Below, in pieces: positions 4,857 through 61,154 of a stretch of 64,000 nucleotides of DNA. Position 1 is the first letter of the stretch, and each line of letters opens with the position of its first letter. A program made the position numbers and the translations under genes. The notes beneath the pieces are model-generated. The model was not told where the DNA came from. It saw nothing but the letters and a program-made list of their open reading frames with translations, and did no database searches. Origin of the DNA: Dehalococcoidia bacterium (GTDB lineage Bacteria > Chloroflexota > Dehalococcoidia > Lucifugimonadales > SHYF01); the NCBI GenBank assembly GCA_965248595.1, contig CBDFJM010000005.1, positions 66,400 to 130,399 on the forward strand, read 5' to 3'.

Positions 4857-4879
4857 TAGCGCAATAGGCCACTGTTTTT

Positions 4880-4907: not shown

Positions 4908-5052
4908 TTGTGTCTGCCGCCAGGCGGTGGTAGAGTACCCCATCTAGGGATGTGTTGCACCATATGCAGATATTAGCGGACGGTATGCGCCAAAGGTTCC
5001 CAGGGTCTAAAGATAGGCAGAGGAGATTTACTGGTAGTGAAGGAGGACAGGT

Positions 5053-5778
5053 ATGGCAAGTCAAGAGTCGTTGAAACAACGCATACGCAAAGGCGAGGTC
5101 ATCATAGGGGTGTCAGTGCCCATAAGTGCCGACCGGCAGCGGATGGAAGCCATCCTGAGCAAGGATAAGTACGACTACATTACTGTTGACAGCCAGCACT
5201 CAGCGTTCAACGAGGAGAGGCTGGTGGCAGTCTGCGCGATTGCAGAGGAGGTGGGCATACCGGTCCAGTTCCGCATTGAGCATACACGGCTGACTTATCT
5301 AATTGGCAACCTGCTCGACCTGGGCCCATGGGGCATAGAGGTGCCCCAGGTGGAGTTGGAGTCAACCGTGGACGAGGCGATCAATTACTTCTACTATCCC
5401 CAGTTTGGCATAAGGAGCAATGGCGGCGCCGCGCGGTATGGACTGAAAGGCCGTGAAGGACAATTTGAATATGCCGAATGGTGGAACAACACGGGAGTCC
5501 TAGAGATGCAGTTGGAGTCAGTCCAGGCTACGACCAACGCTCGAAAGCTTGCTAAGCCAGGGGTTGACCTCCTGTCATGGGGTCCCACAGACCTGGCCTT
5601 CAGCCTGTCCGGCAATCCGAATCACCCGTTCAAGACCATGGACGACTGCATACGCTATGTTCTGGAGCAGCTACAGGGCACCCAGGTCAAGGTGTCTTTG
5701 CGGAGCGGCACGCCAGACCAGCGCGATAAGTACACGAAGATGGGCGTTACGGTGTTACTGGAGCGAGCCCAGGCATAA
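5053..5778 (+). CDS. HpcH/HpaI aldolase / citrate-lyase-beta family protein
   Basis: GIPVQFRIEH...LLDLGPWGIEVPQVELESTVDEAINYFYYPQFGIRS matches the family pattern vR...LD.Ga.Gi.vP.V.s.e.a...YpP.G.R. GGAGGA lies upstream of the ATG. Confidence 0.65.
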   Translation: MASQESLKQRIRKGEVIIGVSVPISADRQRMEAILSKDKYDYITVDSQHSAFNEERLVAVCAIAEEVGIPVQFRIEHTRLTYLIGNLLDLGPWGIEVPQVELESTVDEAINYFYYPQFGIRSNGGAARYGLKGREGQFEYAEWWNNTGVLEMQLESVQATTNARKLAKPGVDLLSWGPTDLAFSLSGNPNHPFKTMDDCIRYVLEQLQGTQVKVSLRSGTPDQRDKYTKMGVTVLLERAQA

Positions 5779-11218: not shown

Positions 11219-11232
11219 TGTGTGCCCCTTCG

Positions 11233-11880
11233 CTAGTAATACCAATCACGCATTAGCGCGAGTGCGGGCTTGTGGGAAGCTGACTCGATGGCTTTGCGTG
11301 CCGCGGCCTGAACCTCTCTTGAATAACTGCCAATTCGGGTCACCAGCGGCCAAGGGAAAGACGTGTGGACGAGGAACTCGGCTTGCTTAGCTTCTTTGAC
11401 ATCAGGAGCCTGGAAATCGGGATTCGCAATCGCTGCCCAATCGAGCCGGTCTAGTCCTGAGACGCTGCAGTCGAACTCAGTGTAATAGGCGCCTGCGTTG
11501 GAGAGACTAAAAGCCCAAGGGCGGTTTACGCTGTTCGCCCATGCAACCACAGAATGAAGGTTCGCCTCGAGATGGACAATCTCACCTTGGCCGCCTCTGA
11601 ATGCCAAATCTGGATGGTTGCCTCGATATATCAAGTACAACATGACTGAGCGGGGGCAGAAAAAGAAGGGCACATAGTCCCCAACACGGGTTCCGTGGTG
11701 ACACGGTACGGGAAGTGCGAGCCTGCGCTTCTTGATTTCCGACATACCGATGATCACGGAAGGCCCACCGCGACTGATCATGGTAGCGTCTGACATTAGG
11801 TCGCCATCACTAACGATTGACGGCAGGTTGTCAATATGAGTGATATGATAGAGCAAAGGCTGAGTGGGAGGTGGACTCAC
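11233..11880 (-). CDS. darT: DarT toxin (DUF4433 ssDNA thymidine ADP-ribosyltransferase)
   Basis: LLYHITHIDNLPSIV, DYVPFFFCPRSVMLY, KQAEFLVHTSFPW and the C-terminal MRDWYY match the conserved blocks of characterised DarT proteins, including the catalytic Glu in AEFLV. Confidence 0.92.
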   Translation of the reverse strand: MSPPPTQPLLYHITHIDNLPSIVSDGDLMSDATMISRGGPSVIIGMSEIKKRRLALPVPCHHGTRVGDYVPFFFCPRSVMLYLIYRGNHPDLAFRGGQGEIVHLEANLHSVVAWANSVNRPWAFSLSNAGAYYTEFDCSVSGLDRLDWAAIANPDFQAPDVKEAKQAEFLVHTSFPWPLVTRIGSYSREVQAAARKAIESASHKPALALMRDWYY

Positions 11881-20199: not shown

Positions 20200-21912
20200 C
20201 CCGAATCCACCGAAGGAGGGCGTCGGGTCAGTGTCCTGAAGCGGCAAGAGGGTGCTCCTGTGAATCTGGGATAATGGTTTTGAAACAGCAAAGCCGACCC
20301 CAGAACAAGGAGCACCCAATAGATGCTACCACGCAACCATCCCGATCGCATCCAAATCGCGTTTGACGACCACCGCCTCGTGGCCAATGCTGGGCTGCTG
20401 CTCCCGGTGACCCTAGCCCAGCACCTGGGCCTGCGTGAAGTCGTCGACAGCCACGTCGACCTGGGAGACGCGCCGGGGCGGGCGAACCCGGGAGACAAGC
20501 TGCTGAGCCTGGTGGCCTCGGCGCTGGCTGGGGGCGACTTCATTGACGACGCCGACGTGTTGCGTACCGGCGGGACAGCTGGCGCCATCGGCTGCGTAGT
20601 CAAGGCGCCATCCACCCTGGGAACTTTCCTGCGCAGCTTCCGGTGGGGCCACGTCCGCCAGTTGGATCGGGTGAGCCGGGAGCTGCTGTCCCGGGCCTGG
20701 GCCGCTGGTGCGGGACCCGGTGAAGGGCCGTTGACCATCGACCTAGACTCCACCATGTGCGAGACCTACGGACTGGCCAAGGAGGGGGCGCGTCACCATG
20801 GTTACACTGGCCAGCGGGGCTATCACCCGCTGCTGGCCATCGCCGCCGGCACCGGCGACGTGCTGATGTCTCGGCTTCGCGAGGGCCGGGCCAACACCGT
20901 TCGTGGCGCCGCCCACTTCCTGCGGGAGACCGTGGGCCGGGTGCGCCATGCTGGGGCTACAGGACAACTCACGGTGCGGGCCGACAGCGGCTTCTATGCC
21001 CACGCCCTGGTCGTCGTCTGCCGCGAGATGGATGTCCGCTTCTCCATCACCATCCGCCAACACGCCCGCCTCAGGGAGTTGATTGAGGCGATTCCCGAGG
21101 AGGACTGGACGCCCGTCCCCTACTGGATGGACGGCGGCGCCGACGTGGCCGAGACCACCTACACTCCCTTCCAGGGTGAGCCCGAAGCCGCCCCAGTGCG
21201 GCTCATCGTGCGGCGGGTGAAGCCCACGCCCGGTTCCCAACTGGCCCTCTTCGCCAGCTACAGCTATCACGGCTTCATCACCGACCGGGACGGGGAAACC
21301 TTGGAACTGGAGGCCGACCATCGCCGCCACGCCGAGATCGAGAATGCCATCCGAGACCTCAAACACGGCGTCGGCCTCAATCATTTCCCCTCGGGCCGCT
21401 TCCCCGCCAACGGCGCCTGGCTGGCCGTTCAGGTGCTGGCCCATAACCTGGCCCGCTGGACTGCGCGCATCGGTCTGGGCGAGGGGGTGGTGACCACCAG
21501 GACCCTCCGGCGGCGCTTCTTCTCCCTGGCCGGACGGCTCACCCGCTCGGCCCGCCGCCTCACTTTGCATCTGCCACAGGGCTGGCCTTGGGAAACCCAG
21601 TTCACTCGCGCCCTGGCTCGATTGCGAGCCCTGCCATTGCCTGCCTGACGGCACCGACGGCGCCTGACACGTCCACCAGACTACTCAACCACCCCACAGA
21701 GTCGCACCGGCCCGGTCCGCGATTGTCTTCCCTTGCATGCTGTCCCGCCGACCCCGCCCCAGCGCCGCTGCCCAGGACCGCCATCGGCGCCACCAACTCC
21801 AACCAAAGGCCGCCACCGGCCCCATTTATCGGAATCGAGCGCGGACCGTCGCGTCCCACGGCCCTCACCCCTTGTTCCAACCCCAAGGCCGCTCCGCATC
21901 GGTGGATTCGGG
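20200..21912 (+). mobile_element. IS1380-family insertion sequence, apparently intact, with 5-bp target-site duplication TTTAG
   Basis: Terminal inverted repeats CCCGAATCCACCGA (20200..20213) and TCGGTGGATTCGGG (21899..21912). Flanking direct repeats TTTAG at 20195..20199 and 21913..21917. One transposase ORF. By eye, clearly more GC-rich than the flanks. Confidence 0.85.
20323..21648 (+). CDS. IS1380-family DDE transposase
   Basis: 441 aa. IAFDDHRLVANAGLLL..., TIDLDST, YHPLL..., and ADHRRHAEIENAIRDLK with a C-terminal ...RLTLHLPQGWPW are typical of IS1380 transposases. Confidence 0.85.
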   Translation: MLPRNHPDRIQIAFDDHRLVANAGLLLPVTLAQHLGLREVVDSHVDLGDAPGRANPGDKLLSLVASALAGGDFIDDADVLRTGGTAGAIGCVVKAPSTLGTFLRSFRWGHVRQLDRVSRELLSRAWAAGAGPGEGPLTIDLDSTMCETYGLAKEGARHHGYTGQRGYHPLLAIAAGTGDVLMSRLREGRANTVRGAAHFLRETVGRVRHAGATGQLTVRADSGFYAHALVVVCREMDVRFSITIRQHARLRELIEAIPEEDWTPVPYWMDGGADVAETTYTPFQGEPEAAPVRLIVRRVKPTPGSQLALFASYSYHGFITDRDGETLELEADHRRHAEIENAIRDLKHGVGLNHFPSGRFPANGAWLAVQVLAHNLARWTARIGLGEGVVTTRTLRRRFFSLAGRLTRSARRLTLHLPQGWPWETQFTRALARLRALPLPA

Positions 21913-27439: not shown

Positions 27440-28805
27440 TAGAGTCCCAGGAAGTGGTGTAACAAGAGTAGAGGGTCTGGATGAAGAGAGACCACCACGT
27501 CATCCTTAGCGGGCAAAGACGAGCCTGAGAAAGGAGGACAACGGTGGTCAAGGAAAGGATGGACCTGCTTGAGCTAATGCGCAAGAGGGGAGTCGACGGT
27601 GACGTGGACTTTCTACGAGAGGCACTGAGAGTGCTGGTCGAGGAGATCATGGAGGCTGATGTGTCATTGAGGACCGGCGCTGGGTATGGAGAACGCAACC
27701 CTGAGCGGGTGACCCAGCGCAACGGGTACCGGTCTCGAGCATGGGACACTCGCGTAGGGACCATGGAGTTGCAGATACCCAAGCTGAGGGAGGGGAGCTA
27801 CTTTCCGAGCCTGCTGGAGCCACGGCGTCGCAGCGAGCGAGCTCTGCTGGCGGTGATCCAGCAGGCGTATGTGGAGGGTGTATCGACGAGGCGAGTGGAT
27901 GATCTGGTCAAGGCTCTTTGGTGCGAGGGTATCTCAAAGAGCCAAGTGTCGCGTATCTGCCAGGAGCTGGACGGGGTGGTGGAGAGCTTCCTGGGTCGGC
28001 CGCTGGACGGCGGATCATATCCCTACCTGTGGCTGGACGCACTAACCCAGAAGGTCAGAGAGGCCGGTAGGATAGTCAACGTCAGCGTGGTGGTGGCGAC
28101 GGCGGTCAATAGCGAGGGCAAGCGTGAGATCGTTGGGATGGACGTGGGTACCAGTGAAGACGGCGCCTTCTGGTTAGCCTTCCTGCGCTCACTGGTCGCC
28201 AGGGGCCTCGGCGGGGTGGAACTGGTGGTATCGGACGCTCATCAGGGACTCAGGGATGCCATCGCAACTGTCTTCGGTGGGGCCAGTTGGCAGCGGTGCC
28301 GCACCCACTTCATGACCAACCTGCTCACTCGGGTCCCCAGGAGCGCTCAGCCCTGGGTGGCCACCATGGTACGCACCATCTACCAGCAGCCGTCCCCTCA
28401 GGAGGTGCATGCCCAACTCGAGCGGGTGATTGCTCAGCTCCAGGACCCGTTCCCACAGGTCGCCTCTCGACTGGACGAGGCTGGACCCGACGTCCTGGCC
28501 TTCTCCAGCTTCCCACTCGCCCACTGGAAGAAGGTCTGGTCCAACAACCCCCTGGAGCGTCTCAACAAGGAGATACGGCGCCGCACCGATGTGGTGGGCA
28601 TCTTCCCTAACCGCCCAGCTGTCCGTCGCCTGGTCGGCGCCGTCCTAGCTGAGCAGCACGACGAGTGGGCCGTCGGCCGTCGATACATGACACAGGAGGT
28701 AACCACCTCCAACGAAGCTCTACCCAGAGCCGAACTCGCAGAGGCAGCGGCCTAGACGATATCAACAGGATGACGTACTCTTACACCACTCTATGGGACG
28801 TGACC
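27438..28805 (+). mobile_element. IS256-family insertion sequence with 9-bp target duplication CTGGTCCGA (identity extends to 11 bp)
   Basis: Direct repeats at 27429..27439 and 28806..28816. Imperfect terminal inverted repeats share GTCCCA...AGTGGTGTAA...GAGTA. A single transposase ORF lies between them. Confidence 0.8.
27544..28755 (+). CDS. IS256-family (Mutator-type) transposase
   Basis: ERNPERVTQRNGYRSRAWDTRVGTMELQIPKLREGSYFPSLLEPRRR, YLWLDA, VVSDAHQGLRDAI and NNPLERLNKEIRRRT are hallmark IS256 transposase blocks. GTG start after AGGAGG. Confidence 0.92.
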   Translation: MVKERMDLLELMRKRGVDGDVDFLREALRVLVEEIMEADVSLRTGAGYGERNPERVTQRNGYRSRAWDTRVGTMELQIPKLREGSYFPSLLEPRRRSERALLAVIQQAYVEGVSTRRVDDLVKALWCEGISKSQVSRICQELDGVVESFLGRPLDGGSYPYLWLDALTQKVREAGRIVNVSVVVATAVNSEGKREIVGMDVGTSEDGAFWLAFLRSLVARGLGGVELVVSDAHQGLRDAIATVFGGASWQRCRTHFMTNLLTRVPRSAQPWVATMVRTIYQQPSPQEVHAQLERVIAQLQDPFPQVASRLDEAGPDVLAFSSFPLAHWKKVWSNNPLERLNKEIRRRTDVVGIFPNRPAVRRLVGAVLAEQHDEWAVGRRYMTQEVTTSNEALPRAELAEAAA

Positions 28806-49848: not shown

Positions 49849-50247
49849 CTACATGGCCGCCAGGCCAGCCTTGGCCACATCCTCGTCCTGCTGAGATGTG
49901 GCTCCGCTAACACCCACAGCCCCGACATTCTGGCCATCCTCTGTTATCGGCATAGCCCCCTGCCCGAACACCACGCGGCCCTGGTTCATCTGGATTATGC
50001 TCTGGAAGACGGGGCTTCCGGCCCGCTCCGCCAGAACGCCGCTGGGCTGGCCGAAAAAGGCGGAGGCAAGGGCCTTTCCCTGCGATATGGCCACGGTGGT
50101 GAAACGCGCACCGTTCATGCGCGCAAAGGCTATCAAGTCACCTCTGGCGTCTACCACAGCGATGCAAACATTGACGCCTAGGGCCTCGGCGCTCTTGCGG
50201 CCAGCGGCGATGATCTTCTCGGCCTGTTCCAGGGTTACTGGCATCAT
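49849..50247 (-). CDS. GlcG/HbpS-like heme-binding protein (DUF336)
   Basis: CIAVVDARGDLIAFARMNGA...ISQGKA...GAVGVSG is the family signature. ATG 50247 follows AGGAGGA. Confidence 0.8.
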   Translation of the reverse strand: MMPVTLEQAEKIIAAGRKSAEALGVNVCIAVVDARGDLIAFARMNGARFTTVAISQGKALASAFFGQPSGVLAERAGSPVFQSIIQMNQGRVVFGQGAMPITEDGQNVGAVGVSGATSQQDEDVAKAGLAAM

Positions 50248-50358
50248 GATCCTCCTGACTTTGCTTATATTGGTATGATGCCAAGTGGTCCCTGGCATTA
50301 GCGGCGCATAGAAAAGAGGGCGATCTCTGAAAGACCGCCCTCTTCTGTAGCCATTCGC

Positions 50359-50835
50359 TCAGGAGCGCCTGGTTCTGGCCGGTGCCGCGGGAGCCTTCTT
50401 AAGCCGGTCCTTCTCCAGTGCCGGCCGCCACTTGGGCAGGCTAATCTCCGGCGTAATGTCCTCGAACACCACCTCTACCGGCATGTTGTTGTAGATGGTG
50501 TGCGGATCGCACTGTACAATGTTGGTGGTCATCCGGCAGTCGCTCTGCTCTGCCAGGGCAATCAGTGCCACCGCATACGGGATCTCCTCATCGAAGCCGG
50601 GAACGTTGCTCTGGTGGATAATAATCCAGCTATAGATCGTACCTTTGCCGCTGAGCTTGACCCACTCATGGTCCCACGAGTTGCATTTGTAGCATATCGG
50701 CCCCGGATTCCACCGGTAACTGTGGCATTCAGAGCACCGCTGGATCCGCAACTCGTGTTGCTTGCTTGCATCCCAGAAGGGCTTACTATCGGCGTCGGGT
50801 ACAGGGATGGGCTTACGGTATTGCGTAGTGGTCAT
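50359..50835 (-). CDS. Zn-ribbon/OB-fold protein (DUF35 family)
   Basis: FWDASKQHELRIQRCSECHSYRWNPGPICYKCNS (a four-Cys ribbon) followed by an OB-fold segment. Lies directly downstream of two thiolase-like genes. Confidence 0.85.
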   Translation of the reverse strand: MTTTQYRKPIPVPDADSKPFWDASKQHELRIQRCSECHSYRWNPGPICYKCNSWDHEWVKLSGKGTIYSWIIIHQSNVPGFDEEIPYAVALIALAEQSDCRMTTNIVQCDPHTIYNNMPVEVVFEDITPEISLPKWRPALEKDRLKKAPAAPARTRRS

Positions 50836-50845
50836 GCTTTATCCC

Positions 50846-52018
50846 TTACCCTTTCCTTAGAATAAGTGCAGCGCCGTGGGGTCCGCCCTGGCCTGTGGTC
50901 AGGACTAGCTCCGCATTTTTCACCTGGCGCTCCGCTGGCAACTCGTGCCGTAGCTGGCGTGCCCCTTCAATAACGTGTCCCAGTCCCTGCCTATACGCCT
51001 CGGAGAGGTTGCCTCCATGGGTATTGACCGGGAGCTCGCCGCCTAGCCTGATGCGGTGTCCACCCTCCACAAATGGTCCACCCTCGCCCTTGTCCACAAA
51101 ACCGAAGTCTTCCAACTGGATGAGGGTAATGGAGGTAAAGCAGTCGTACAGTTCCGCGGCGTCAATGTCCTTGGGTGTTACACCCGCCATCTCGAAGACC
51201 CGGGGGGCCGTGTACTTGCCGTACAGCTCCGTCAGGTCCGGCCACATATCCCCATGTGCTGACATGGGGCCTGTGCCCGCTGCCGCTCCCAAAATGTGTA
51301 CTGGCCTGTGCTTCAGCGACTTGGCCCGCTCAGCAGTGGTAATTATCAAAGCGCAACCCTGGTCGGTATCCAGGCAGCAGTCCAGCAGATGGAAGGGCTC
51401 CACCACCCAACGGGATGTCTGGTGGTCTTCCAGGGTAATGGGCGATGGCATCTGGGAGAGAGGGTTCAGGGATGCATGATACCTGGCGGCGACGGCTATC
51501 CAGCCAAGCTGCTCGCTGGTGGTGCCGTACTTCTCCATGTGCGTCCTGGCCTTCATGGCGAAGCCCTGAGGCGGCGTGGCCATTCCATACAGGCTACCCC
51601 CTGCGGCTCCACGAACCTTGGGAGGCCCATCGGCGCCGGCAAATCTTCCCATCCCGCCAATTCGGGTGCCGGAGCGACCGTTCTGGGCCCTGTACAGCAC
51701 CGCATAGTTACATACTCCCGCGTTCACCATGGCAGCTGCGGTCAGGACGGCAGTATTGGAGGCGAACCCTCCGCCGGAGTAAACTCCGCTCCACTTGAGT
51801 TCAGGGATGCCCAGAGCGCTGGCCACCTGGTGTGGAGTGACCGAATCGGGCCCGTTGTTGGTGGCAATGCCGTCAATGTCCTTGGAGTTCAACCCGGCGT
51901 CCTCGATGGCCTCCTTGACGGCCCTGGTTGCCAGCGTCAACACACTTACGCCGGACTGTTTCATGCCCGGAGTGGCCCCAATTCCCACAATTGCAATCTT
52001 GTCTCGAAAGTCTCGCAT
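50846..52018 (-). CDS. thiolase-superfamily protein (SCP-x/Ltp-like), apparently lacking the thiolase catalytic Cys and His
   Basis: KIAIVGIG...; GGGFASNT sits where the C(A/G)SG nucleophile motif is expected; GGNLSEAYRQGLG sits where GG..s.GHP.GAtG is expected. ATG 52018 follows AAGGAG. These alignments were done by eye. Confidence 0.7.
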   Translation of the reverse strand: MRDFRDKIAIVGIGATPGMKQSGVSVLTLATRAVKEAIEDAGLNSKDIDGIATNNGPDSVTPHQVASALGIPELKWSGVYSGGGFASNTAVLTAAAMVNAGVCNYAVLYRAQNGRSGTRIGGMGRFAGADGPPKVRGAAGGSLYGMATPPQGFAMKARTHMEKYGTTSEQLGWIAVAARYHASLNPLSQMPSPITLEDHQTSRWVVEPFHLLDCCLDTDQGCALIITTAERAKSLKHRPVHILGAAAGTGPMSAHGDMWPDLTELYGKYTAPRVFEMAGVTPKDIDAAELYDCFTSITLIQLEDFGFVDKGEGGPFVEGGHRIRLGGELPVNTHGGNLSEAYRQGLGHVIEGARQLRHELPAERQVKNAELVLTTGQGGPHGAALILRKG

Positions 52019-52082
52019 GATCCCGCTCCTTTCCCCCATGGGGTATGTACCAAGTGCCAAGAACCCTCTACAGAATAGGCTT

Positions 52083-53243
52083 TCAGCGACGCAAAATCAA
52101 TGCGCTTCCCCGGTCGAACTCATGGCTGGTGCATATGGCGACCTCAGCGTTCTTCACCTGGCGAGGACCAGCCTGTCCTCGCAACTGGATAACGGCCTCC
52201 ACCACTTGCGCCAGCCCCTCCATCTCTCCCTCCGCCAGCGATCCACCGTTGGTGTTCACCGGGAGCTTGCCTCCCAACTCGATGGCGCCGCTTTTCACGA
52301 AATCGCCGGCTTCGCCCTCCTTGCAGAAGCCGAAATCTTCCAACTGAGGAAGGACCATCCATGAGAATGGGTCGTGCAACTCCGCCACATCCACATCCTT
52401 GGGGCCTATGCCAGCCTGCTCATACAGTCGGGCACCCAGCCGCTTGCTGAAGCACTCGCCTAGCTCCGAACTCATGTAGCCCAGACTGGGTTTGTCCGTG
52501 TTGCCGCTCTGCGCCGCCATAATGTATATTGGAGGATGGCGCAGGTCTTTGGCCCTCTCCACGCTGGTCACTATCACGGCGCAGGCCCCCACGGCCTCCA
52601 CGAAGCAGTCCAGCGACCGTAGCGGGTCGGCTACCAGAGGAGAGGCAAGATAGTCGTTCAGGGAAACATGGGTCCGTAGAAGCGCCCGGTCATTCAAGGT
52701 GGCGTTGTTGCGGGCCGCCATGACCACTCGCCCGAAATCCTCTTGTTGGGTCCCATAATTGATCATGCGCCGCCGGGCCATCATCGCGGACCGGTGGGTC
52801 CCTGCATTCATACCGTAGGGCTGACCGTACTGGCGCTCCTCCCATAAAGCATCGGAGTCAAGGCCTTGCAGACCTATCATAGGGTTGTGGTTGGCCCACC
52901 GGTTTACCACGTGGAAGACAATGGCGTAGTCGCCCAGGTTCTGCATCGTCGCTGCAGCTGCCATGCCGATAAGCTCGTCGGCGACATAGGAACCTCCTGG
53001 AGTGCCATCCCAGTTCCAATAGAGTTGCTCCAGCCCCAGGATAGTCTCCAGGAGACCCTGGTTGGGCGTGTCTCCCCGGGTGTAGCTGGCGACGCTATGT
53101 ATCTGCTTTGTCTTGAGGCCGGCGTCTTGAATGGCGTTCAACGCCGCTTCTGCCGCAAGGTTCAGGTTGCTTATCCCTGCCGACTGGGTGAACTTGGTGT
53201 AGCCTATGCCCACGATGGCTGCCTGATCTGTGAAAGTGCTCAT
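52083..53243 (-). CDS. thiolase-superfamily protein (SCP-x/Ltp-like), second paralogue, also lacking canonical catalytic residues
   Basis: QAAIVGIGYT...; GGSYVADE at the expected nucleophile position; GGSLAEGEMEGLA at the GHP position. By-eye alignment. Confidence 0.7.
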   Translation of the reverse strand: MSTFTDQAAIVGIGYTKFTQSAGISNLNLAAEAALNAIQDAGLKTKQIHSVASYTRGDTPNQGLLETILGLEQLYWNWDGTPGGSYVADELIGMAAAATMQNLGDYAIVFHVVNRWANHNPMIGLQGLDSDALWEERQYGQPYGMNAGTHRSAMMARRRMINYGTQQEDFGRVVMAARNNATLNDRALLRTHVSLNDYLASPLVADPLRSLDCFVEAVGACAVIVTSVERAKDLRHPPIYIMAAQSGNTDKPSLGYMSSELGECFSKRLGARLYEQAGIGPKDVDVAELHDPFSWMVLPQLEDFGFCKEGEAGDFVKSGAIELGGKLPVNTNGGSLAEGEMEGLAQVVEAVIQLRGQAGPRQVKNAEVAICTSHEFDRGSALILRR

Positions 53244-53357: not shown

Positions 53358-54296
53358 CTAGAATATGGCCACCGGGTTCAAAGGAGACCCCGTGGCGTTT
53401 TTCCACCGTAGTGGCGATGTGACGAACAGGAACTCCCACCTGTTTTCCCGAGCGCACACCTCGGCCAGGCTCTCGTAGCTGCCCGAATCTATTATCCATA
53501 GCCCCATGGCGCAGATTCCCACGGCGTGGACCGGCAGCGGAAAGAGCAGGTCGGTGTCGAATCCGGTGGGAGCCACGTCGGTGGCGGCGTCGGCTCCAAT
53601 AAGGGCCACCTGCCGCTCGTGAACCCATGGTAGACTGGCGGCGGCCAACCCCGGGCGGCCAGGCAACGGCGGCGGTCCTTCCACCTCCCGCTGCTTTGGC
53701 CAGCCTGTCCGGTACAGCAGGGCATCGCCGGGTTGCACCTTCACCCCCTGTGCCTTCTCCGCGGCCTCCAGGTCCTCCGGATAGATCCCATCTCCCGGTC
53801 CCATCCACTGAACACCCCTGAGCCTGGCGATGTCCAACAGAACACCCCGGGTGACAATGCCGTCTTCCAGCACCTGAACGCCGCCCTTGGATGCCTTCTC
53901 TCTTGCGTTCACCAGGCTGGCGTCCAGTCCGTTGTAGGACTTTCGGTTCCAAAAGATGTGGGAGAAGGTGTCAATATGGGTGATGTGGTAGCCGTGGAAA
54001 GCAAGTCCAATAAAATCACTAGCTCCACCCATGCCCTTCTCAGGAGCCTCAGTGCCGGTGCCCATCATAAAATGAAGCGGGTTGTTAGCAACATCCTGGG
54101 CGTTCTCCGGGTACAGCATTCTGGAGCAGCTTACGGTTATCCCCTTTTGCACCAGCTTGGCGGCGGCTATCCGCGTCTCCGGCGTGACATAGTTCATCGT
54201 TCCCAGCTCATCGTCGGGCCCCCAACGTCCCCAATTGCTCAGGGAGTCCATATACTTATTCACTTCTTGGGCCGAGGGGTTGGACTTGGTGGTCAT
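53358..54296 (-). CDS. cyclase-family metal-dependent hydrolase (kynurenine-formamidase-like)
   Basis: FHGYHITHIDTFSHIF resembles the H.G.H.D.P.H metal motif of PF04199. 312 aa. Confidence 0.65.
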   Translation of the reverse strand: MTTKSNPSAQEVNKYMDSLSNWGRWGPDDELGTMNYVTPETRIAAAKLVQKGITVSCSRMLYPENAQDVANNPLHFMMGTGTEAPEKGMGGASDFIGLAFHGYHITHIDTFSHIFWNRKSYNGLDASLVNAREKASKGGVQVLEDGIVTRGVLLDIARLRGVQWMGPGDGIYPEDLEAAEKAQGVKVQPGDALLYRTGWPKQREVEGPPPLPGRPGLAAASLPWVHERQVALIGADAATDVAPTGFDTDLLFPLPVHAVGICAMGLWIIDSGSYESLAEVCARENRWEFLFVTSPLRWKNATGSPLNPVAIF

Positions 54297-54495
54297 GGCT
54301 ACCTCCTTAACGAAGTTCTACAAAATCCTGCGATTGCAAGGGTCGTATGGATAGGCCAAGGTACCCTCCATTCCCTGACCACGCATGAGTTTATAACAGG
54401 CCCAAAGGGCAGTCAATAAGGCTGCTGGATACGTTCTGTTTGCTTGTAGGTGGTTGTGGCTAAACCTGGCACTAAAGTACCCGGTTTAGGTTCAG

Positions 54496-54525
54496 CCAGC
54501 CCCCCTACTAAAGTCGGGGGGCTGG
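54496..54525. repeat. hairpin in the divergent intergenic region, loop related to the AAAGTCGG repeat family
   Basis: CCAGCCCCCC tactaaagtc GGGGGGCTGG is a perfect 10-bp stem. Confidence 0.5.
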
Positions 54526-54565
54526 ACGCCCAGTAGAAGCAAACAGTGCCTCTTCTATCAGAGTC

Positions 54566-54594
54566 TTGACAACAAGGCTTTGTCGTTGTAACTT
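54566..54594 (+). promoter_or_regulatory. weak candidate promoter for the hot-dog gene array
   Basis: TTGACA (54566..54571), a 17-nt spacer, then TAACTT (54589..54594). The spacer contains ACAAggctTTGT. Confidence 0.3.
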
Positions 54595-54753
54595 GCCGCT
54601 ATCACCACTACGGCCGCAGCCCGCCTTGCATTGAACCCATAGCGGACAGGTGGCACGTCTTTTGCGGCAGCCAACCGCCAGATCCTTTTGGGGCACCGCC
54701 CCTCTAACTTAACTCGCTCTGCTGCCAAATATAACCTGTGAAGGAAGGAACCC

Positions 54754-55368
54754 ATGACCACCAGCGAGAATCAACCAGTCGCACCATCGCCCAGGGGAGA
54801 CTCCCAATACACCTGGGAGGACACCATCGCCGCCATCGGTCAGGACCTCGCCAGCGGTGAGGAGCACGTAGCCGACGAGGTGATAGACTCTACGGCCGTG
54901 GAGCGCTTCTGCGAGCCTTGGGAAATAGGCAACCCTCTCCACTGGGATAAAGAGGTTGCCAAACAGGCCGGCTACCGGGACATAGTAGTGCCCTGGAGCG
55001 CCATCAAGCAGACCTTCGCCTACATGGGGGCTTGGAGGCCTGGGGACGCCACCCGATTTCCTACCACTATGCATAAGGATGCCACGGCGCGGCTTGGCAG
55101 CTTCTCGCCCACTGGCAGACCCGTCCCAAAACCACCCACGTCCACAGGGATTGTCACCGACATAGATATCGAGTTCTTTGAGCCAGTGTGCGTGGGAGAC
55201 AGCATTAGCGTCAAGGGCAATAAACTGGTCAACGTCAGGCCCAGGACGACACGCATAGGCGAAGGTGCCTTCATGAACCGCGAAAGCGAGTTCTATAATC
55301 AGCGTGGAGAGCTGGTAGCACGAGCTAATTCGGGAGGCTTCTCTTACAATCCGACAAGAAAAGACTAG
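54754..55368 (+). CDS. MaoC_dehydratase_N-type hot-dog protein, array copy 1 (most divergent)
   Basis: 204 aa. WEIGNPLHWDKEVAKQAGY matches the degenerate hydratase motif of the N-terminal-half MaoC family. Conserved blocks EFFEPVCVGD and TRIGEGAFMNRESEFYNQRGELVAR. GAAGGAAGGA lies upstream. Confidence 0.8.
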   Translation: MTTSENQPVAPSPRGDSQYTWEDTIAAIGQDLASGEEHVADEVIDSTAVERFCEPWEIGNPLHWDKEVAKQAGYRDIVVPWSAIKQTFAYMGAWRPGDATRFPTTMHKDATARLGSFSPTGRPVPKPPTSTGIVTDIDIEFFEPVCVGDSISVKGNKLVNVRPRTTRIGEGAFMNRESEFYNQRGELVARANSGGFSYNPTRKD

Positions 55369-55407
55369 GGCTAGAATCAAGCTACGCCAGGAGCAAAAGG
55401 AGGAAGG

Positions 55408-56022
55408 ATGACGCAGGACAGGCCAGCCATGGCGCAACGCGGGGATGCCAGATACACCTGGGATGATACCATCGCCGCCATAGGCCAGGACTTCTCTGGT
55501 GGCAAGGACCGCATAGCCCAGGAGACCATAGAAGCCACTTCCGTGGCCAGGTACTGCGAGGTTTGGGAAATAGGCAACCCGGTCTACTGGTACGAAGACG
55601 CGGCAAAGCAGGCTGGCTACCGAGGAGTGGTGGCTCCCTGGAGCAGCATCCAGCAGACCTTTACCTATAACTCTTTCTGGCGCCCTGGACAACCCTCGCG
55701 TTTTCCTGTGGGCACCGACATAAATGCCATGACCTCCAACGCCACACCACTTGGCGAAGAGGAACAAAGCGTCCCCACGCCGCCTACCACCCAGGGAATA
55801 GTAACCGACATACAAATCGAGTTCTTCGAACCTGTCTGCGTGGGCGACAAGATCATTACCCGAGGCAGCAAGCTGGTCAGCGTCAGGGTAAGGGAAACCC
55901 GCATCGGATATGGCGCATTCATGAACAGGGAGACCGAGTTCTACAACCAGAGCAACCAGCTTGTGGCACGAATGAATCGTGGGGGCTTCTCCTACAACGC
56001 GGGAGCGAAGGCCCCCAACTAG
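55408..56022 (+). CDS. MaoC_dehydratase_N-type hot-dog protein, array copy 2
   Basis: 204 aa, WEIGNPVYWYEDAAKQAGY, about three-quarters identical to copy 3 by hand alignment. AAGGAGGAAGG lies upstream. Confidence 0.8.
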   Translation: MTQDRPAMAQRGDARYTWDDTIAAIGQDFSGGKDRIAQETIEATSVARYCEVWEIGNPVYWYEDAAKQAGYRGVVAPWSSIQQTFTYNSFWRPGQPSRFPVGTDINAMTSNATPLGEEEQSVPTPPTTQGIVTDIQIEFFEPVCVGDKIITRGSKLVSVRVRETRIGYGAFMNRETEFYNQSNQLVARMNRGGFSYNAGAKAPN

Positions 56023-56088
56023 GGTGGTCCCGCAGAAAGAAGCTAGCTGGAATGGCCCATAGAGTGGGAGTATCTGGAGAGGGGTTAA

Positions 56089-56703
56089 ATGACACAGGAT
56101 AAGCCAGCCTTCACACAGCGCGGGGACGCCAGGTACACCTGGGATGATACCATCGCCGCCATAGGCAAGGACTTCTCTGGCGGCAAGGACCACGTAGCCC
56201 AGGAGACCATAGAAGCCACTTCCGTGTCCCGGTACTGTGAGGTGTGGGAAATGGGCAACCCCATCTACTGGTACGACGACTCGGCAAAGCAGGCTGGCTA
56301 CAGCGGAGTGGTGGTACCCTGGAGTAGCACTTACCAGACATTCACAAATAACTCCTTCTGGAGGCCCGGCCAGCCAAGCCGCTTCCCTGTCGGCACCGAC
56401 AAGAACCTTGCCACGGCCACAGCCGCACCACGTGAAGATGCAGAAGAGCCAGTGCCCATGCCCATAACTACTCAGGGCGTTGTCACTGACATACAACTCG
56501 AGTTCTTCGAACCACTAATAGTGGGCGACAAGCTTACCGCAAAGGGTAGCAAGCTAGCCAACGTCAGGGTCAGGGAAACCCGCATCGGCTATGGCGCGTT
56601 CATGAACCGGGAGACCGAATTCTACAACCAGCGTGGACAACTGGTGGCGCGAATAAATCGCGGAAGTTTTACCTACACCCCCGGGACGAAGGCCCCCAAC
56701 TAG
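56089..56703 (+). CDS. MaoC_dehydratase_N-type hot-dog protein, array copy 3
   Basis: 204 aa, WEMGNPIYWYDDSAKQAGY. Same block structure as the other copies. Confidence 0.8.
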   Translation: MTQDKPAFTQRGDARYTWDDTIAAIGKDFSGGKDHVAQETIEATSVSRYCEVWEMGNPIYWYDDSAKQAGYSGVVVPWSSTYQTFTNNSFWRPGQPSRFPVGTDKNLATATAAPREDAEEPVPMPITTQGVVTDIQLEFFEPLIVGDKLTAKGSKLANVRVRETRIGYGAFMNRETEFYNQRGQLVARINRGSFTYTPGTKAPN

Positions 56704-56773
56704 GATAGTCCCGCGGGCAGAGGAAGCTGACGACAAAGGCCAATTGAAATAGCGTAGCGGAAAGGATCAGATA

Positions 56774-57388
56774 ATGACACAGGAAAGACCGGCATCCACA
56801 CGAAGCGGCGACAACAAATACACCTGGGATGACACCATCGCCGCCATAGGCAAGGACTTCTCAGGCGGTAGAATAAAGGTGGCTTCGGAAACCATCGAGC
56901 CTAGCGCCTTAAGCCGGTATTGTGAGGTCTGGGAGATAGGCAATCCCATCTATTGGTACAAAGACGTGGCACAGCAGGCCGGCTACAAGGGCGTAGTGGC
57001 TCCCTGGAGCAGTATCCAGCAGACATTTACGTATAACTCCTTCTGGCGGCCCGGCCAGCCAACGCGCTTTCCTGTCGACACACATAAAGATGCCGCCACG
57101 TCCAACGCCACCATGCCGGATGAACGAGAAGAGCCTCTGCCCAAACCACCAACCAGTACAGGCATAGTCACGGACATACAGATTGAATTCTTTGAGCCTG
57201 TGTGCATTGGCGACAGCCTTACCGCAAAGGGCAGCAAGCTGGTCAACGTTAGAGTTCGGGAGACCCGCATCGGCTATGGCGCTTTCATGAACAGGGAAAA
57301 TGAGATCTTTAATCAACGTGGCGAGTTGGTGGCTCGGATGAACCGCGGAGGCTTTTCCTACAACCCAGGCGAGAAAGCCCCCAAATAA
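56774..57388 (+). CDS. MaoC_dehydratase_N-type hot-dog protein, array copy 4
   Basis: 204 aa, WEIGNPIYWYKDVAQQAGY. Same block structure as the other copies. Confidence 0.8.
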   Translation: MTQERPASTRSGDNKYTWDDTIAAIGKDFSGGRIKVASETIEPSALSRYCEVWEIGNPIYWYKDVAQQAGYKGVVAPWSSIQQTFTYNSFWRPGQPTRFPVDTHKDAATSNATMPDEREEPLPKPPTSTGIVTDIQIEFFEPVCIGDSLTAKGSKLVNVRVRETRIGYGAFMNRENEIFNQRGELVARMNRGGFSYNPGEKAPK

Positions 57389-57462
57389 TCAAGGTGGCTT
57401 AGCAGGAAGAACAAGCTGACCACAACGGCGATTAGAATCGAATCAGCAGGAAGGAGGTAAGA

Positions 57463-58062
57463 GTGACCCAAGAGAAACCAGCATTAATGCGCCGTGGGGA
57501 CCCCAAATACACCTGGGATGACACCATCGCCGCCATTGGCAAGGACTTCTCCGGCGGCAAGAAACGGGTGGCCCAGGAAACCATTGACACCACCGCAGTG
57601 AACAGGTATTGCGAGGTCTGGGAAATCGGCAACCCCATCTACTGGCATGGAGATGCAGCCAAGCAGGCCGGCTACAAGGGCGTGGTAGTCCCCTGGAGCT
57701 CCATCAAACAGACCTTCACATCTCGGGGGTTCTGGCGGCCTGGAGATCCCTCCCGCTTTCCGGCGGGCATTGATGTGAATGCCATGGCGGCCGGCGCTTT
57801 TGACGAGGACGAATCCGGGGAAGAGGTGCCCATGCCACCCATCACCCAGGTCATTGTGACGGACGTGCAGATCGAGTTCTTCGAACCTGCATGCGTTGGC
57901 GACAAGCTGACCACCCAGGGGAACAGGCTGGCAAACGTTAGGCCAAGGAAGACGCGCATCGGCGTCGGGGCCTTCATAAACAATGAGAGCGAGATACACA
58001 ATCAGCGAGGTGAGCTGGTTGCACGGGTCAACCAGGGCATATACTCTTACAACCCTGAGTAG
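57463..58062 (+). CDS. MaoC_dehydratase_N-type hot-dog protein, array copy 5
   Basis: 199 aa, GTG start after GGAAGGAGG, WEIGNPIYWHGDAAKQAGY. Same block structure as the other copies. Confidence 0.8.
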   Translation: MTQEKPALMRRGDPKYTWDDTIAAIGKDFSGGKKRVAQETIDTTAVNRYCEVWEIGNPIYWHGDAAKQAGYKGVVVPWSSIKQTFTSRGFWRPGDPSRFPAGIDVNAMAAGAFDEDESGEEVPMPPITQVIVTDVQIEFFEPACVGDKLTTQGNRLANVRPRKTRIGVGAFINNESEIHNQRGELVARVNQGIYSYNPE

Positions 58063-58144
58063 CGGTCACCACTACAAAGGTCTATACTCTAGATTCCAGC
58101 AACAACAGGAACCAAGGAAACGAAGCTAAGTTAAGGAGGCGCAC

Positions 58145-58639
58145 ATGGCAACTAGCAATAGGACCGAGACACCGCAGGTTTATTGGGAGGACGTAAAAGA
58201 GGGAGATGAAATACCCGGGGTTGACTTCAACCTCACCGTCCAGCGTATGGTCATGTCGGCTGGGTCCAACCGGGACTTTGCCACCATCCACCACAACTCC
58301 ACTATGGGCAAGGCCGCCGGCTCCCCGGACATGTTCCTGAACAACGTCTCCTGCCTTCAATTGTGGGAGCGCGTGATTTCCGACTGGACTGGAGTTTACG
58401 GAAGGGTAAAGAAGGTCTCCTTCCGCATCACCCACTTCCATGCTGCTGGCGATATCGTGAAGACGCACGGTAAAGTCATCAAGACGTGGCAGGAGAACGG
58501 CCTCAACCTCGTCGAGCTAGAGCTGGTGAGCGAGACGCCCCGAATGCCGGGTATGACCGGTACAGCGGTCATAGCGCTACCCTCCAAGGCCAATCCCACT
58601 GCTACACCACGCTGGGACGCTCAAGGCGTCGCCGTCTAA
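58145..58639 (+). CDS. MaoC-like (R)-specific enoyl-CoA hydratase/dehydratase, putative catalytic subunit
   Basis: 164 aa hot-dog protein. AGSNRDFATIHHNSTMGKAAG keeps an Asp-x4-His dyad at the hydratase-2 motif position. AAGGAGG lies upstream. Confidence 0.75.
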   Translation: MATSNRTETPQVYWEDVKEGDEIPGVDFNLTVQRMVMSAGSNRDFATIHHNSTMGKAAGSPDMFLNNVSCLQLWERVISDWTGVYGRVKKVSFRITHFHAAGDIVKTHGKVIKTWQENGLNLVELELVSETPRMPGMTGTAVIALPSKANPTATPRWDAQGVAV

Positions 58640-58986: not shown

Positions 58987-59403
58987 ATGACAGCAAGGAA
59001 TATCGAAGGAACAACCAACCCCAGGCGACTGATCAGCTTTGACATAGACGGGACAATGGAGTTCGGCGACCCTCCAGGAATAGTGACTGCTCAATGGGTG
59101 AAGCTCGCCAAAGAGCAAGGGACCCTGGTGGGCAGCGCCTCAGACCGCCCTCTGGCCGAACAACGGAGAGTGTGGGCCCAGACAGGCATAGAGTTAGACT
59201 TCGTAATCCTCAAACATTGGATGCTGGAGCTAAGGACAACCTTCCAAGCGGACGAGTACTGGCACGTCGGCGACGGCCAGATGGACGAGCTCTTCGCCCG
59301 GCAGGCAGGGTTTACGTTCTTCATTGCCAACACCTTTCCCCAGGACGTGCTTACCCACGTCAACGAACAGAACGGCTCTGGGCCATCGGTGCCAGAAGCC
59401 TAG
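58987..59403 (+). CDS. small HAD-superfamily phosphatase-like protein
   Basis: LISFDIDGTM (DxDxT motif), GSASDR and HVGDGQMD. 138 aa. Confidence 0.6.
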   Translation: MTARNIEGTTNPRRLISFDIDGTMEFGDPPGIVTAQWVKLAKEQGTLVGSASDRPLAEQRRVWAQTGIELDFVILKHWMLELRTTFQADEYWHVGDGQMDELFARQAGFTFFIANTFPQDVLTHVNEQNGSGPSVPEA

Positions 59404-59456: not shown

Positions 59457-60161
59457 CTACCACCACTGCTCCGTCCTGATGCGGGTGGGGTCTACTCCCA
59501 AACCAGCCAGCGCGTCTGAGATATCCTCCAGCATGAGATTTGGCCCGCATAGATAGAAGAGCGCCTCTTCCCCCGGCATACACTCCTTCAGCATAGCCCG
59601 GTCAATCCGCCCGCCACGGCCTTGCCAGGGCTCACTGTGGGGCTGTGTCACAGTAAAGACGCACCGTATACGCGGATTGCGGTCAGCCATCTCTCTCAAT
59701 GCCTGGAAGAACAACATTTCCGATGGGGCCTTGGAGCTGTAGAGAAGGGTGGCCTCTACATCGGGGTGCGCCTCGTCCACGTACCTTAGAATGCTCATGA
59801 GTGGGGTTATGCCAATCCCCCCGGCAATGAGCACCAGCCTACTGCCCATATCCCTCTCGTAGTAGAAGTCCCCGGACCCGCCTTCGATAACGAAGGAGTC
59901 CCCTTCTCTTGCCCGCTCATGCAGGTAGACCGATGGCACACCGAACGATATCTTTTTCACGGCTATCTCAATGCTGCCCCGCTGAACAGGAGAGGATGTG
60001 ATGGAGAACCCACCGACCTGCATAGACCCGCCAGTGTCTATGTAGAAGTCTATCCACTGACCCGGCAGGAAGGAGAAGTCAGCACCCCCCAGGTCCAGCA
60101 GAAAGGTCTTGACCGATGGGGTTTCCTGAACGATTCTGGCGATAGTGGCGCGTATTTTCAT
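59457..60161 (-). CDS. ferredoxin-NADP reductase-type FAD/NAD(P)-binding oxidoreductase
   Basis: GQWIDF...GGFSITSSP (RxYS-like FAD motif) and LVLIAGGIGITPLMSIL (NAD(P) motif). C-terminal ...LCGP.... Confidence 0.75.
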   Translation of the reverse strand: MKIRATIARIVQETPSVKTFLLDLGGADFSFLPGQWIDFYIDTGGSMQVGGFSITSSPVQRGSIEIAVKKISFGVPSVYLHERAREGDSFVIEGGSGDFYYERDMGSRLVLIAGGIGITPLMSILRYVDEAHPDVEATLLYSSKAPSEMLFFQALREMADRNPRIRCVFTVTQPHSEPWQGRGGRIDRAMLKECMPGEEALFYLCGPNLMLEDISDALAGLGVDPTRIRTEQWW

Positions 60162-60275: not shown

Positions 60276-61154
60276 CTAAGAAACCCGTTTTGCTTTCTCG
60301 ACCAACAGAAGAATACCAGCCACGCACGTCGTGAGTACGAATTCGGCATCTGACGCTTCTATTTTGGGCTTCCCAGCAACCATTGCGTGGCCCGCCCCCG
60401 AAGCATCTCCCCTATAGCTTTCTACCTTCAGGAGCGCGTCTCTCAAGGTCGAATGGACCGCAGACCTAAATGGCTCCGCAGTGAGAATCTTTTGCAAAGA
60501 TGCGTTTGGGTCTTTTACTAGGGTTCTTCCCGTCCCTTCCAAAGCACCGACCGCATCCTTTACGGAGTTTTCAACATCTGGCACGAGACGTTCATCTAGT
60601 GCGCGCAGTGCTTTCGTTAGTTGGGCTCTTGGCTCTTCAAACCCCTCCGCATGAAGAACCTCTAGCCCCTTTTCAATAATCTCGGCGACAGGCTCTGGCC
60701 TGCGCCGTTGAATCTCATTGCCAACAAGAACCCATTGGAGACCGTGTTCTAGAAATAGCTCGTTGACATTATATTCAAAGTCGTCCCTGGCTGAGGGAAG
60801 TGTCTCAGAGATGACCTCGGAGACAGCCCAAACGATGTCAAAGAAAACATTCCAGGGGCACTCGGCTAAGATTCTATCAAGTTCATCGTAAATCTCGAAG
60901 GGGAATTCGCTAGTGACGTCTGAGTACCGGTACCCGCGTTGCACGGACGGGCGTGTGAATAAGTGTTGGTACACCGTTCGTGGGAGCATGCTTTCATTGT
61001 ATCTGCCGTGGCTCAGCGTAGAAGCGTTGGCAGCTATATTGTTTACAATTGCGACTAGACCTGTCCTTACCTCTGTAGGAACCACATCAAGTTCCATTTC
61101 TGCAGGTCGTGGTGCAGCGCCAAATCGCTCCGTGAAACCATCTTTTCTCAGCAT
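60276..61154 (-). CDS. AbiJ-N-terminal-domain / HEPN-like (Abi_C-type) protein, putative abortive-infection module
   Basis: GFTERFGAAP...VRTGL resembles the FSeR.Gy.P start of AbiJ_NTD proteins. The central NELFLEHGLQWVLVGNEI and C-terminal VKDAVGALEGTG...SYRGDASGAGHAM...SDAEFVLTTCVAGILLL follow the SIKESISAVE...GIRHa...dA.f.l..c pattern. More AT-rich than the neighbours by eye. Confidence 0.5.
   Translation of the reverse strand: MLRKDGFTERFGAAPRPAEMELDVVPTEVRTGLVAIVNNIAANASTLSHGRYNESMLPRTVYQHLFTRPSVQRGYRYSDVTSEFPFEIYDELDRILAECPWNVFFDIVWAVSEVISETLPSARDDFEYNVNELFLEHGLQWVLVGNEIQRRRPEPVAEIIEKGLEVLHAEGFEEPRAQLTKALRALDERLVPDVENSVKDAVGALEGTGRTLVKDPNASLQKILTAEPFRSAVHSTLRDALLKVESYRGDASGAGHAMVAGKPKIEASDAEFVLTTCVAGILLLVEKAKRVS

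Follow-up and report, generated by a model that had tools for sequence, protein, structure and literature searches.

Gene content of the array

The window analysed here is a stretch of 64,000 nucleotides (nt) from a Dehalococcoidia bacterium (GTDB lineage Bacteria; Chloroflexota; Dehalococcoidia; Lucifugimonadales; SHYF01; GenBank assembly GCA_965248595.1, contig CBDFJM010000005.1, positions 66,400 to 130,399 of the forward strand). It carries a tandem array of five repeated genes for proteins of the PF13452 family, named A1 to A5, followed by a single gene for a protein of 164 amino acids (aa), named B. All six genes lie on the + strand: A1 (54754..55368), A2 (55408..56022), A3 (56089..56703) and A4 (56774..57388), each coding for 204 aa, A5 (57463..58062; 199 aa, GTG start) and B (58145..58639). 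The array had been described in an earlier note made from the letters alone, and the open reading frame (ORF) listing gave the same six genes at the same coordinates and lengths. The period of about 650-690 base pairs (bp) claimed there was measured as 654-689 bp from start to start, with spacers of 39-82 bp, and a GGAGG-like motif was found upstream of every start, in line with the claim of a Shine-Dalgarno sequence for each gene.

When the A copies were searched with the PF13452 hidden Markov model (FAS1_DH_region / MaoC N-terminal type), as the note had proposed, all five matched with E-values from 7e-15 to 2e-12 (A1, 3.8e-13; A2, 4.2e-14; A3, 2.1e-13; A4, 1.5e-12; A5, 7.3e-15). Copies A2 to A5 share 66-76 % amino acid identity in pairwise comparisons, which supports their paralogy at a figure slightly lower than the three-quarters estimated before, and A1 is indeed more divergent (55-61 % to A2-A5). 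Nucleotide identity among the copies is 62-78 %, and identity at third codon positions is 0.42-0.63, compared with 0.71-0.86 at the first two. All five copies contain the motif W-E-[IM]-G-N-P-x-[YH]-W, together with the substitutions reported in it: the Asp position of the hydratase dyad is Ile in all five, and the His position is Tyr in A2-A5 and His in A1.

A 595-aa antisense ORF (54709-56496, - strand) spans copies A1 to A3, and shorter similar ones lie opposite A4 and A5. They very probably arise as a side effect of the repeated, GC-rich coding sequence, without being genes.

Integrity of the assembly

The array is not an assembly artefact. The copies are too diverged (62-78 % at the nucleotide level) to confuse an assembler, contigs tile the region cleanly, and an independently assembled contig (L001) of a metagenome-assembled genome (MAG) repeats the 5:1 array in the same gene surroundings. 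The Logan contigs came from three runs of one sample and, tiled along the array, showed neither a difference nor an alternative joint, at a depth of only 3-6x. Synonymous sites among the A copies are near saturation (dS, the synonymous substitution rate, 0.8-2.8 by the Nei-Gojobori method). The idea that one or two real copies were expanded or joined chimerically can point to this low coverage and to Logan unitigs that break at conserved stretches between copies. Arrays of three and four copies are, however, also found in other assemblies, and we consider it scarcely credible. An artefact had been named beforehand as an outcome that would refute the array; the copy divergence, the Logan tiling and the L001 array exclude it.

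One low-depth Logan contig (run X1) skips 312 nt at 53444-53757, inside a cyclase-family gene upstream of the array. This may be a deletion variant or a related strain in the sample.

Sequence and predicted fold of the A and B proteins

A profile of the B family matched ChsH1 best (4WNB_B/4W78_B; 2e-11), followed by HadB (7e-6). When the dyad regions were aligned, NRDFATIHHN of B corresponded to TRDFQDVHHD of ChsH1, with the atypical dyad motif RDFxxxHH in common, and RDFxxxHHN was found in 80 of the 91 B homologues. The earlier note had called the 164-aa gene MaoC-type. Its Asp-x4-His dyad was found as described (Asp44/His49 in RDFATIHHN), but the expected PF01575 match was not, nor did B reach any other Pfam model. 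The NCBIfam HadB model hit B at 3.7e-7, under its cut-off (30 bits vs 203), and the kinship of B with MaoC, ChsH1 and HadB rests on this sub-cut-off hit and on the ChsH1 profile match. With the A copies, the NCBIfam Had models scored 22-29 bits against a cut-off of 180; overall, scores for HadA, HadB and HadC were 22-30 bits, against cut-offs of 180-232.

A profile of the five A copies matched the N-terminal chains of ChsH2 in 4W78/4WNB (EIGNPIY in A, GDRNPIY in ChsH2), at an identity of only about 19 %. The AlphaFold2 (AF2) model of A2 (predicted local distance difference test score, pLDDT, 82; predicted template modelling score, pTM, 0.73) has a seven-residue central helix (78-84), an irregular loop of 44 residues (85-128) and then four long strands. 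When this model was compared with the PDB using Foldseek, the top five matches were ChsH2 chains (4W78/4WNB), followed by HadA chains. With their roughly 200 aa, the A copies contain no DUF35 domain. A natural A-B fusion protein (P0059) was also modelled with AF2, from a block-wise alignment of homologues of A and B, and its B half was predicted confidently (pLDDT about 90), with a canonical 16-residue central helix that aligns to B residues of about 67-82.

In the characterised system, ChsH1 holds the Asp/His dyad and ChsH2 has Tyr for His and a remodelled pocket; the ChsH1-ChsH2 heterodimer has one active site, made of the ChsH1 housing and the ChsH2 pocket (PMC11321319). Judged by sequence and models, A resembles the N-terminal domain of ChsH2, a non-catalytic hot dog with a short helix and a long loop, and B resembles ChsH1 and would be the sole catalytic hot-dog subunit of the locus. 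The dyad Asp was found in no member of the wider A family. Residual catalysis in A1 was considered on account of its retained His and rejected, since an Asp partner is lacking and the A1-type orthologues do not share the His. The His reported for copy 1 is thus present but carries no weight.

In the B homologues of loci L003-L014 (Burkholderiales and some Dehalococcoidia MAGs) the motif reads RNFxxxHHN, with Asn in place of the presumed catalytic Asp. The HHN triplet is invariant across the B family, this subclade included. Its members are either inactive or use a chemistry unlike that of the canonical hydratase-2 dyad.

A-B pairing and copy number in related genomes

Eighty loci anchored on B were collected from species-representative genomes. 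A single ORF with A at its N-terminus and B at its C-terminus, both covered nearly from end to end, was present in 50 of them, and nearly all non-fused loci had adjacent A and B genes. We infer from the fusions, as Rosetta-stone evidence, that A and B function as a pair. No fusion of A or B with DUF35 was found in any fetched locus.

The copy number survey proposed in the earlier note returned the 5:1 ratio of the window again in L001. The A:B ratio is 4:1 in L081 and 3:1 in L082; it is at least 4:1 in L092, at least 3:1 in L084/L094 and at least 2:1 in L091, where the contigs end. All more distant relatives are 1:1 or fused. Multi-A arrays were confined to close relatives, a subclade whose B proteins share at least about 73 % identity with B of the window, and in each array a B gene follows immediately on the A block. 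A metagenome scan with B added only 19 loci, mostly short; multi-A arrays were seen among them too, but they yielded no statistics on distribution. In the literature searched, no report of arrays of this kind was met, a weak negative given its incomplete coverage.

Solitary A genes without an adjacent B occur in L083 and L088/L089; a 146-aa ORF upstream of the solitary A of L088 was tried as a cryptic B and showed no similarity. Besides its array, the MAG of L001 carries one A-B pair at 1:1 and one A-B fusion (L010, L013), so that different versions of the hydratase coexist in a single genome. In two loci the whole A-B pair was amplified, as (A-B)x3 in L086 (7536-11083), beside two crotonase-family genes, and as (A-B)x2 in L016 (9352-11538).

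Divergence and selection in the array

All five A copies are intact, and the ratio of nonsynonymous to synonymous substitution rates (dN/dS) among them is 0.08-0.27 (Nei-Gojobori); they are old duplicates under purifying selection. By region, dN/dS was 0.07-0.15 in the beta-sheet, 0.06-0.30 in the helices that house the active site and 0.18-0.67 in loop residues 97-124. In the mycobacterial HadA, HadC and HadD proteins, the length of the hot-dog helix and the alpha3-beta2 loop set the opening of the substrate crevice, and the structure of HadB is identical with all three partners (PMC10949391). In ChsH2, too, it is this post-helix region that forms the pocket end (PMC11321319).

When the window was compared with L001, identities were 91-93 % for the proteins Thl1, Thl2 and DUF35 of a neighbouring operon (described below), 83 % for B and 66-88 % for the best A-A matches. 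A3 is 88 % identical to L001_A4, while the best L001 match of A4 reaches only 70 % and that of A5 66-67 %. Clean 1:1 orthology of the A copies is absent, and L001 has a recent duplicate of its own (A3/A4, 86 %). No other part of the locus evolves as fast or is as dynamic as the A array. In a neighbour-joining tree, an 'A1-type' lineage (A1 of the window, L001_A1 and L084_A1) stands apart from the clade with A2-A5; the L081 and L082 arrays form their own clade, and A5 groups with L084_A3. Between A2 and A3, dS is only 0.29-0.34 over the first ~77 codons (55408-55640 vs 56089-56320) and about 1 or saturated further on, a pattern suggestive of gene conversion limited to the N-terminal, housing half, with the loop and sheet half spared.

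The divergent operon with a putative aldolase

The earlier note did not cover an operon transcribed divergently from the array on the - strand. Its first gene codes for a cyclase-family protein (53358..54296; PF04199, E = 2e-17) and is followed by Thl2 (52083..53243, 386 aa), Thl1 (50846..52060, 404 aa), a stand-alone DUF35 protein (50359..50835) and, as the last gene, an HbpS-like/GlcG-family protein (49849..50298; PF03928, E = 1.7e-34). The 457 bp between the cyclase gene and A1 (54297..54753) are presumed to be the promoter or regulatory region of both operons. The cyclase gene is probably not a core part of the system, since it is missing at the corresponding position in L001; the HbpS-like gene is kept at its position there.

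Thl1 and Thl2 both matched TcLtp2, the steroid side-chain aldolase of Thermomonospora curvata, best in the PDB (6OK1_A; 2e-75 and 2e-62, respectively), and both lack the nucleophilic Cys of thiolases (Thl1 has 'SGGG' for the 'NNCS' of SCP2-thiolase 6HSJ; in Thl2, 'GGSYVAD' aligns to 'GGGA--ACG' of TcLtp2). An identity of the operon as thiolase or as part of an archaeal system resembling fatty acid synthase (FAS) was rejected on account of the missing Cys. The catalytic residues of such aldolases are a Tyr base in YD[HC][FY] and an acid, Tyr344 in TcLtp2 or Cys304 in CtSal (PMC12329534). Thl1 has the motif YDCF, with the Tyr base and the Cys acid position, and Tyr at the position of Tyr344, and is a putative retro-aldolase of the Ltp2/Sal type. 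Thl2 has HDPF for YDHF/YDCY and Glu at the Tyr344 position, and is thus without the aldolase residues. It is 92 % identical to its L001 orthologue (L001 4834-5994) and only 40 % to Thl1, and may be a non-catalytic partner of Thl1, which would echo the catalytic/inert pairing of the hydratase.

The DUF35 protein, encoded immediately downstream of Thl1, has PF01796 and PF12172 (zinc ribbon and OB fold), matches ChsH2(DUF35) best in the PDB (6OK1_B; 1e-25) and also 9MYR_B, and is 93 % identical to its L001 orthologue. It presumably docks the Ltp2-like proteins. About a dozen further loci, spread over several phyla, likewise have A-B genes close to a Thl/DUF35 pair. By gene content and homology, the locus appears to be a split hydratase-aldolase system of the ChsH1/ChsH2/Ltp2 type in which the pocket subunit has been amplified.

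Interpretation and alternatives

The best reading of the array, to our judgement, is alternative pairing of A copies with B to give pairs of differing specificity; arguing from sequence, models and analogy, we hold it to be probable, though by no means secure. B, with Asp44/His49 and a long central helix, would be the only catalytic hot-dog subunit. Each A copy would be a catalytically dead hot dog like the N-terminal domain of ChsH2, with a large acyl-binding pocket opened by the seven-residue helix and the 44-residue loop. Each A-B heterodimer, itself probably part of an a2b2 tetramer, would then have one active site composed of the B housing and the A pocket. The six genes are probably co-transcribed: the promoter and terminator scan found no terminator-like site on the + strand within the A1-B block, a weak indication; sigma-70-like matches in the same scan were at chance level only. 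Co-produced with A1-A5, B would be distributed among five alternative partners to form up to five isoenzymes, with pockets that differ mainly in the post-helix loop and so may accept different bulky or branched enoyl-coenzyme A (enoyl-CoA) substrates. (R)-specific hydration would give a 3-hydroxyacyl-CoA, which Thl1, docked by the stand-alone DUF35 protein and possibly paired with the degenerate Thl2, would cleave by a retro-aldol reaction. In characterised hydratase-aldolases, cleavage pulls an unfavourable hydration equilibrium forward (PMC11321319), and Thl1 could do the same here. The un-fused DUF35 may let a single aldolase module serve every isoform.

The earlier note had also proposed one catalytic subunit with several non-catalytic partners. 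The distribution of the dyad, the folds, the 50 fusions among 80 loci, the three to five A genes per B in the subclade, the purifying selection and the loop variability are all consistent with this. Of the precedents it named, HadAB and ChsH1/ChsH2, the HadB principle stood, but the system itself proved closest to ChsH1/ChsH2 and not to HadAB. The array appears to be selected and not accidental, because dN/dS stays at 0.08-0.27 at a dS of 0.8-2.8 and because 3-5:1 arrays recur in the subclade.

Several observations weigh against alternative pairing with differing specificities. In no region of the A copies does dN/dS exceed 1, and the loop is perhaps just less constrained and not adaptively diversified. 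B, the supposed catalytic subunit, reaches no Pfam model. In the P0059 model the A half and the domain packing are of low confidence (pTM 0.48), too poor to place the interface or the pocket residues. The apparent co-transcription implies that the isoforms would not be regulated separately, and among the sequencing runs that hold the locus none is clearly labelled as RNA. No steroid-ring catabolic genes were found in the window. Coupling to an aldolase is not universal, since the L081, L082 and L084 arrays adjoin acyl-CoA dehydrogenases and not Ltp2-like genes. Given the additional A-B systems of the L001 MAG (L010, L013), A copies might use other B partners.

One rival is a redundant birth-and-death array, in which all A copies do the same job with B, copy number drifts by unequal crossing-over and the sequence differences, mostly in a floppy loop, have no effect on specificity. 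In its favour, the copy number varies among relatives (3, 4, 5 or at least 4), clean 1:1 orthology with L001 is absent, L001 has a recent A3/A4 duplicate, gene conversion seems to have acted on part of A2 and A3, and variation is greatest in a loop of low pLDDT, with dN/dS nowhere above 1. But redundant copies normally decay or become homogenised, and these are intact and constrained despite near-saturated synonymous sites; the A1-type lineage has been kept across three genomes; the variable loop corresponds to the element that shapes the substrate crevice of Had and ChsH proteins; and amplification for dosage would be expected to give near-identical copies and to include B. We therefore regard redundancy as rather unlikely, while it is the rival that we take most seriously. 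If all five A copies and B were instead built into a single dehydratase core, possibly with Thl1, Thl2 and DUF35, the apparent co-transcription of the six genes would fit, and DUF35 proteins are known to scaffold multi-enzyme complexes (bioRxiv 10.1101/2024.07.05.601840). Such a fixed oligomer is hard to reconcile with three, four or five A genes per B in close relatives and with 1:1 or fused forms elsewhere. The known relatives form a2b2 tetramers, each of which contains a single type of A (PMC11321319, PMC10949391), and in a 1:1 interface a 5:1 ratio leaves four A copies without a catalytic partner. We judge it unlikely.

No more favourable is our view of A proteins that act independently of the adjacent B, whether with distant B-like partners, as acyl-CoA-binding or scaffold proteins for the Ltp2-like and DUF35 proteins, or through a thioesterase-like hot-dog activity. 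Solitary A genes exist (L083, L088/L089), hadD is likewise unlinked to hadB (PMC10949391), and the MAG of L001 has further A-B systems. Against this, fusion or adjacency of A and B is overwhelmingly the rule, the A block of every array ends at a B gene, no A-DUF35 fusion occurs among the fetched loci, and the A copies have no recognisable catalytic dyad; we consider such independence quite improbable. The thiolase-fold, DUF35 and MaoC assembly of archaea acts in synthesis (bioRxiv 10.1101/2024.07.05.601840), and HadA, HadC and HadD tune chain length in FAS-II (PMC10949391), so that an anabolic, FAS-like complex independent of acyl carrier protein (ACP), as in Sulfolobus, was also considered, with the A copies tuning chain length. 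Thl1 and Thl2, however, both lack the nucleophilic Cys needed for Claisen condensation and match the aldolase Ltp2 best, no ketoreductase or enoyl reductase gene lies in the cluster, and the related arrays adjoin acyl-CoA dehydrogenases, which are catabolic. This makes an anabolic role very unlikely.

Going beyond alternative pairing as such, it is conceivable that a groundwater Dehalococcoidia lineage has made the ChsH1/ChsH2/Ltp2 system modular. A shared catalytic subunit and aldolase module would be combined with a fast-evolving birth-and-death array of three to five pocket subunits, with the hot-dog halves and DUF35 un-fused and each pocket suited to a different bulky or beta-branched enoyl-CoA (steroid-, hopanoid- or terpenoid-like alicyclic). 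We put this forward tentatively and think that the chances are somewhat against it.

Other genes in the window

No ACP, ketoacyl-ACP synthase (KAS) or reductase genes were found among the neighbours of the array. An acyl-CoA dehydrogenase gene at 3621-4856, 50 kb off, is 62-64 % identical to those that flank the L081 and L084 arrays. On the + strand of the same region (3621-5778) an HpcH/HpaI (CitE-like) lyase gene comes next, and an Opp-type ABC transporter lies ahead of the dehydrogenase gene. The genes at 3621-5778 may belong to the pathway of the array, displaced by 50 kb.

Directly downstream of B lies a 138-aa ORF (58987-59403, +) without a Pfam match. A ferredoxin-reductase-like FAD/NAD-binding protein (59457-60161, -) is 60 % identical to the product of a gene near the L084 array, and synteny is therefore conserved downstream. 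Two genes past the array, a protein with AbiJ N-terminal domain 4 (PF18863, 5.6e-10; 60276-61154, -) has a possible role in abortive infection or defence. At 10163-11880 (-), a DarT gene (PF14487, 6.6e-57) overlaps the downstream gene of a 360-aa Macro-domain protein by 13 nt; by their domains the two are a putative ADP-ribosyltransferase toxin-antitoxin pair of the DarT/DarG type. Two transposase genes (20323-21648 and 27544-28755, both +) belong to the DDE_Tnp_1_4 and Mutator families, and the first lies within a high-GC block at 20-22 kb (0.66 vs about 0.58 elsewhere).

Significance

If the five A-B pairs differ in specificity, the locus would be a case of specificity evolving by exchange of the pocket subunit around a constant catalytic subunit. 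It would extend the HadA/HadC/HadD principle from three unlinked partners to a tandem array, and would offer parts for engineered (R)-hydratase/retro-aldolase cascades on bulky acyl-CoAs, with relevance to steroid synthons. It would also hint at a so far unrecognised ability of abundant uncultured subsurface Dehalococcoidia to cleave the side chains of recalcitrant alicyclic or branched organic acids. Should the tentative modular scheme hold as well, nature would here have produced a system of combinatorial specificity, and machinery for steroid-type C-C side-chain cleavage would for the first time be seen outside Actinomycetota and Proteobacteria. Were the copies redundant, the array would still be an ordinary lineage-specific paralogue expansion.

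Comparison with known systems

The closest known system is ChsH1-ChsH2(-Ltp2) of Mycobacterium tuberculosis and Thermomonospora curvata (4W78, 4WNB, 6OK1), which gave the best sequence or fold matches for A, B, Thl1, Thl2 and DUF35. Both systems have a small catalytic chain with RDFxxxHH and a larger non-catalytic PF13452 chain encoded by adjacent genes. The dyad is restricted to the small chain, and the large chain has Tyr at the His position (here in A2-A5). The large chain combines a short helix with an extended loop and the small chain has a long helix (here in the predicted structures), and a Cys-less thiolase-fold aldolase occurs with a DUF35 partner. They differ in that five pocket subunits are encoded here instead of one, and DUF35 is a separate gene here and not the C-terminal domain of the pocket subunit. 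Two Ltp2 paralogues are present, one of them catalytically degenerate, and Thl1 has a Sal/SLP-like YDCF in place of the YDHF of Ltp2. The A copies have Ile and not Asp at the Asp position of the dyad, unlike ChsH2, and the host is a member of the Dehalococcoidia without a steroid-catabolic context at the locus.

HadA is the second-best fold match for A, which brings in HadAB, HadBC and HadBD of mycobacterial FAS-II (4RLJ, 5ZY8, 8PWZ). HadB enters into heterotetramers with any of three non-catalytic partners, and these determine the substrate size (PMC10949391). What recalls this here is the gene ratio (5:1 here and 3-5:1 in relatives), under which B may be shared in a similar way. The Had substrates are ACP-bound and biosynthetic, whereas the present cluster looks catabolic and would act on CoA esters. 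The three Had partners do not lie in one tandem array (hadD is unlinked), the NCBIfam equivalog cut-offs are not reached here, and a FAS-II/ACP context is absent among the neighbours.

In the bile-acid side-chain system of Comamonas testosteroni, CtShy-CtSal (9MYR), a MaoC hydratase likewise goes together with a thiolase-fold aldolase docked by DUF35, and YDCY of CtSal (Tyr base, Cys acid) resembles YDCF of Thl1. Shy, however, is a homodimer in which both active sites are functional and there is no inert partner (PMC11321319), whereas the present system appears heteromeric. The fused double hot-dog MaoC dehydratases (for example MSMEG_6754, 4V12/5I7N) and the A-B fusions of most related Dehalococcoidia loci show the same domain order, with the non-catalytic half at the N-terminus and the catalytic half at the C-terminus. 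In a fusion the two halves are bound to a 1:1 ratio, whereas in the lineage of the window they are split, so that one of them can be amplified.

That one catalytic hot-dog subunit can serve several partners is thus already established from HadB with HadA, HadC and HadD. What is new here is the scale, with up to five partners, and the tandem, quickly turning-over arrangement, in a putative ChsH-type hydratase of CoA esters with an Ltp2-like aldolase and a free-standing DUF35 protein in an uncultured member of the Dehalococcoidia.

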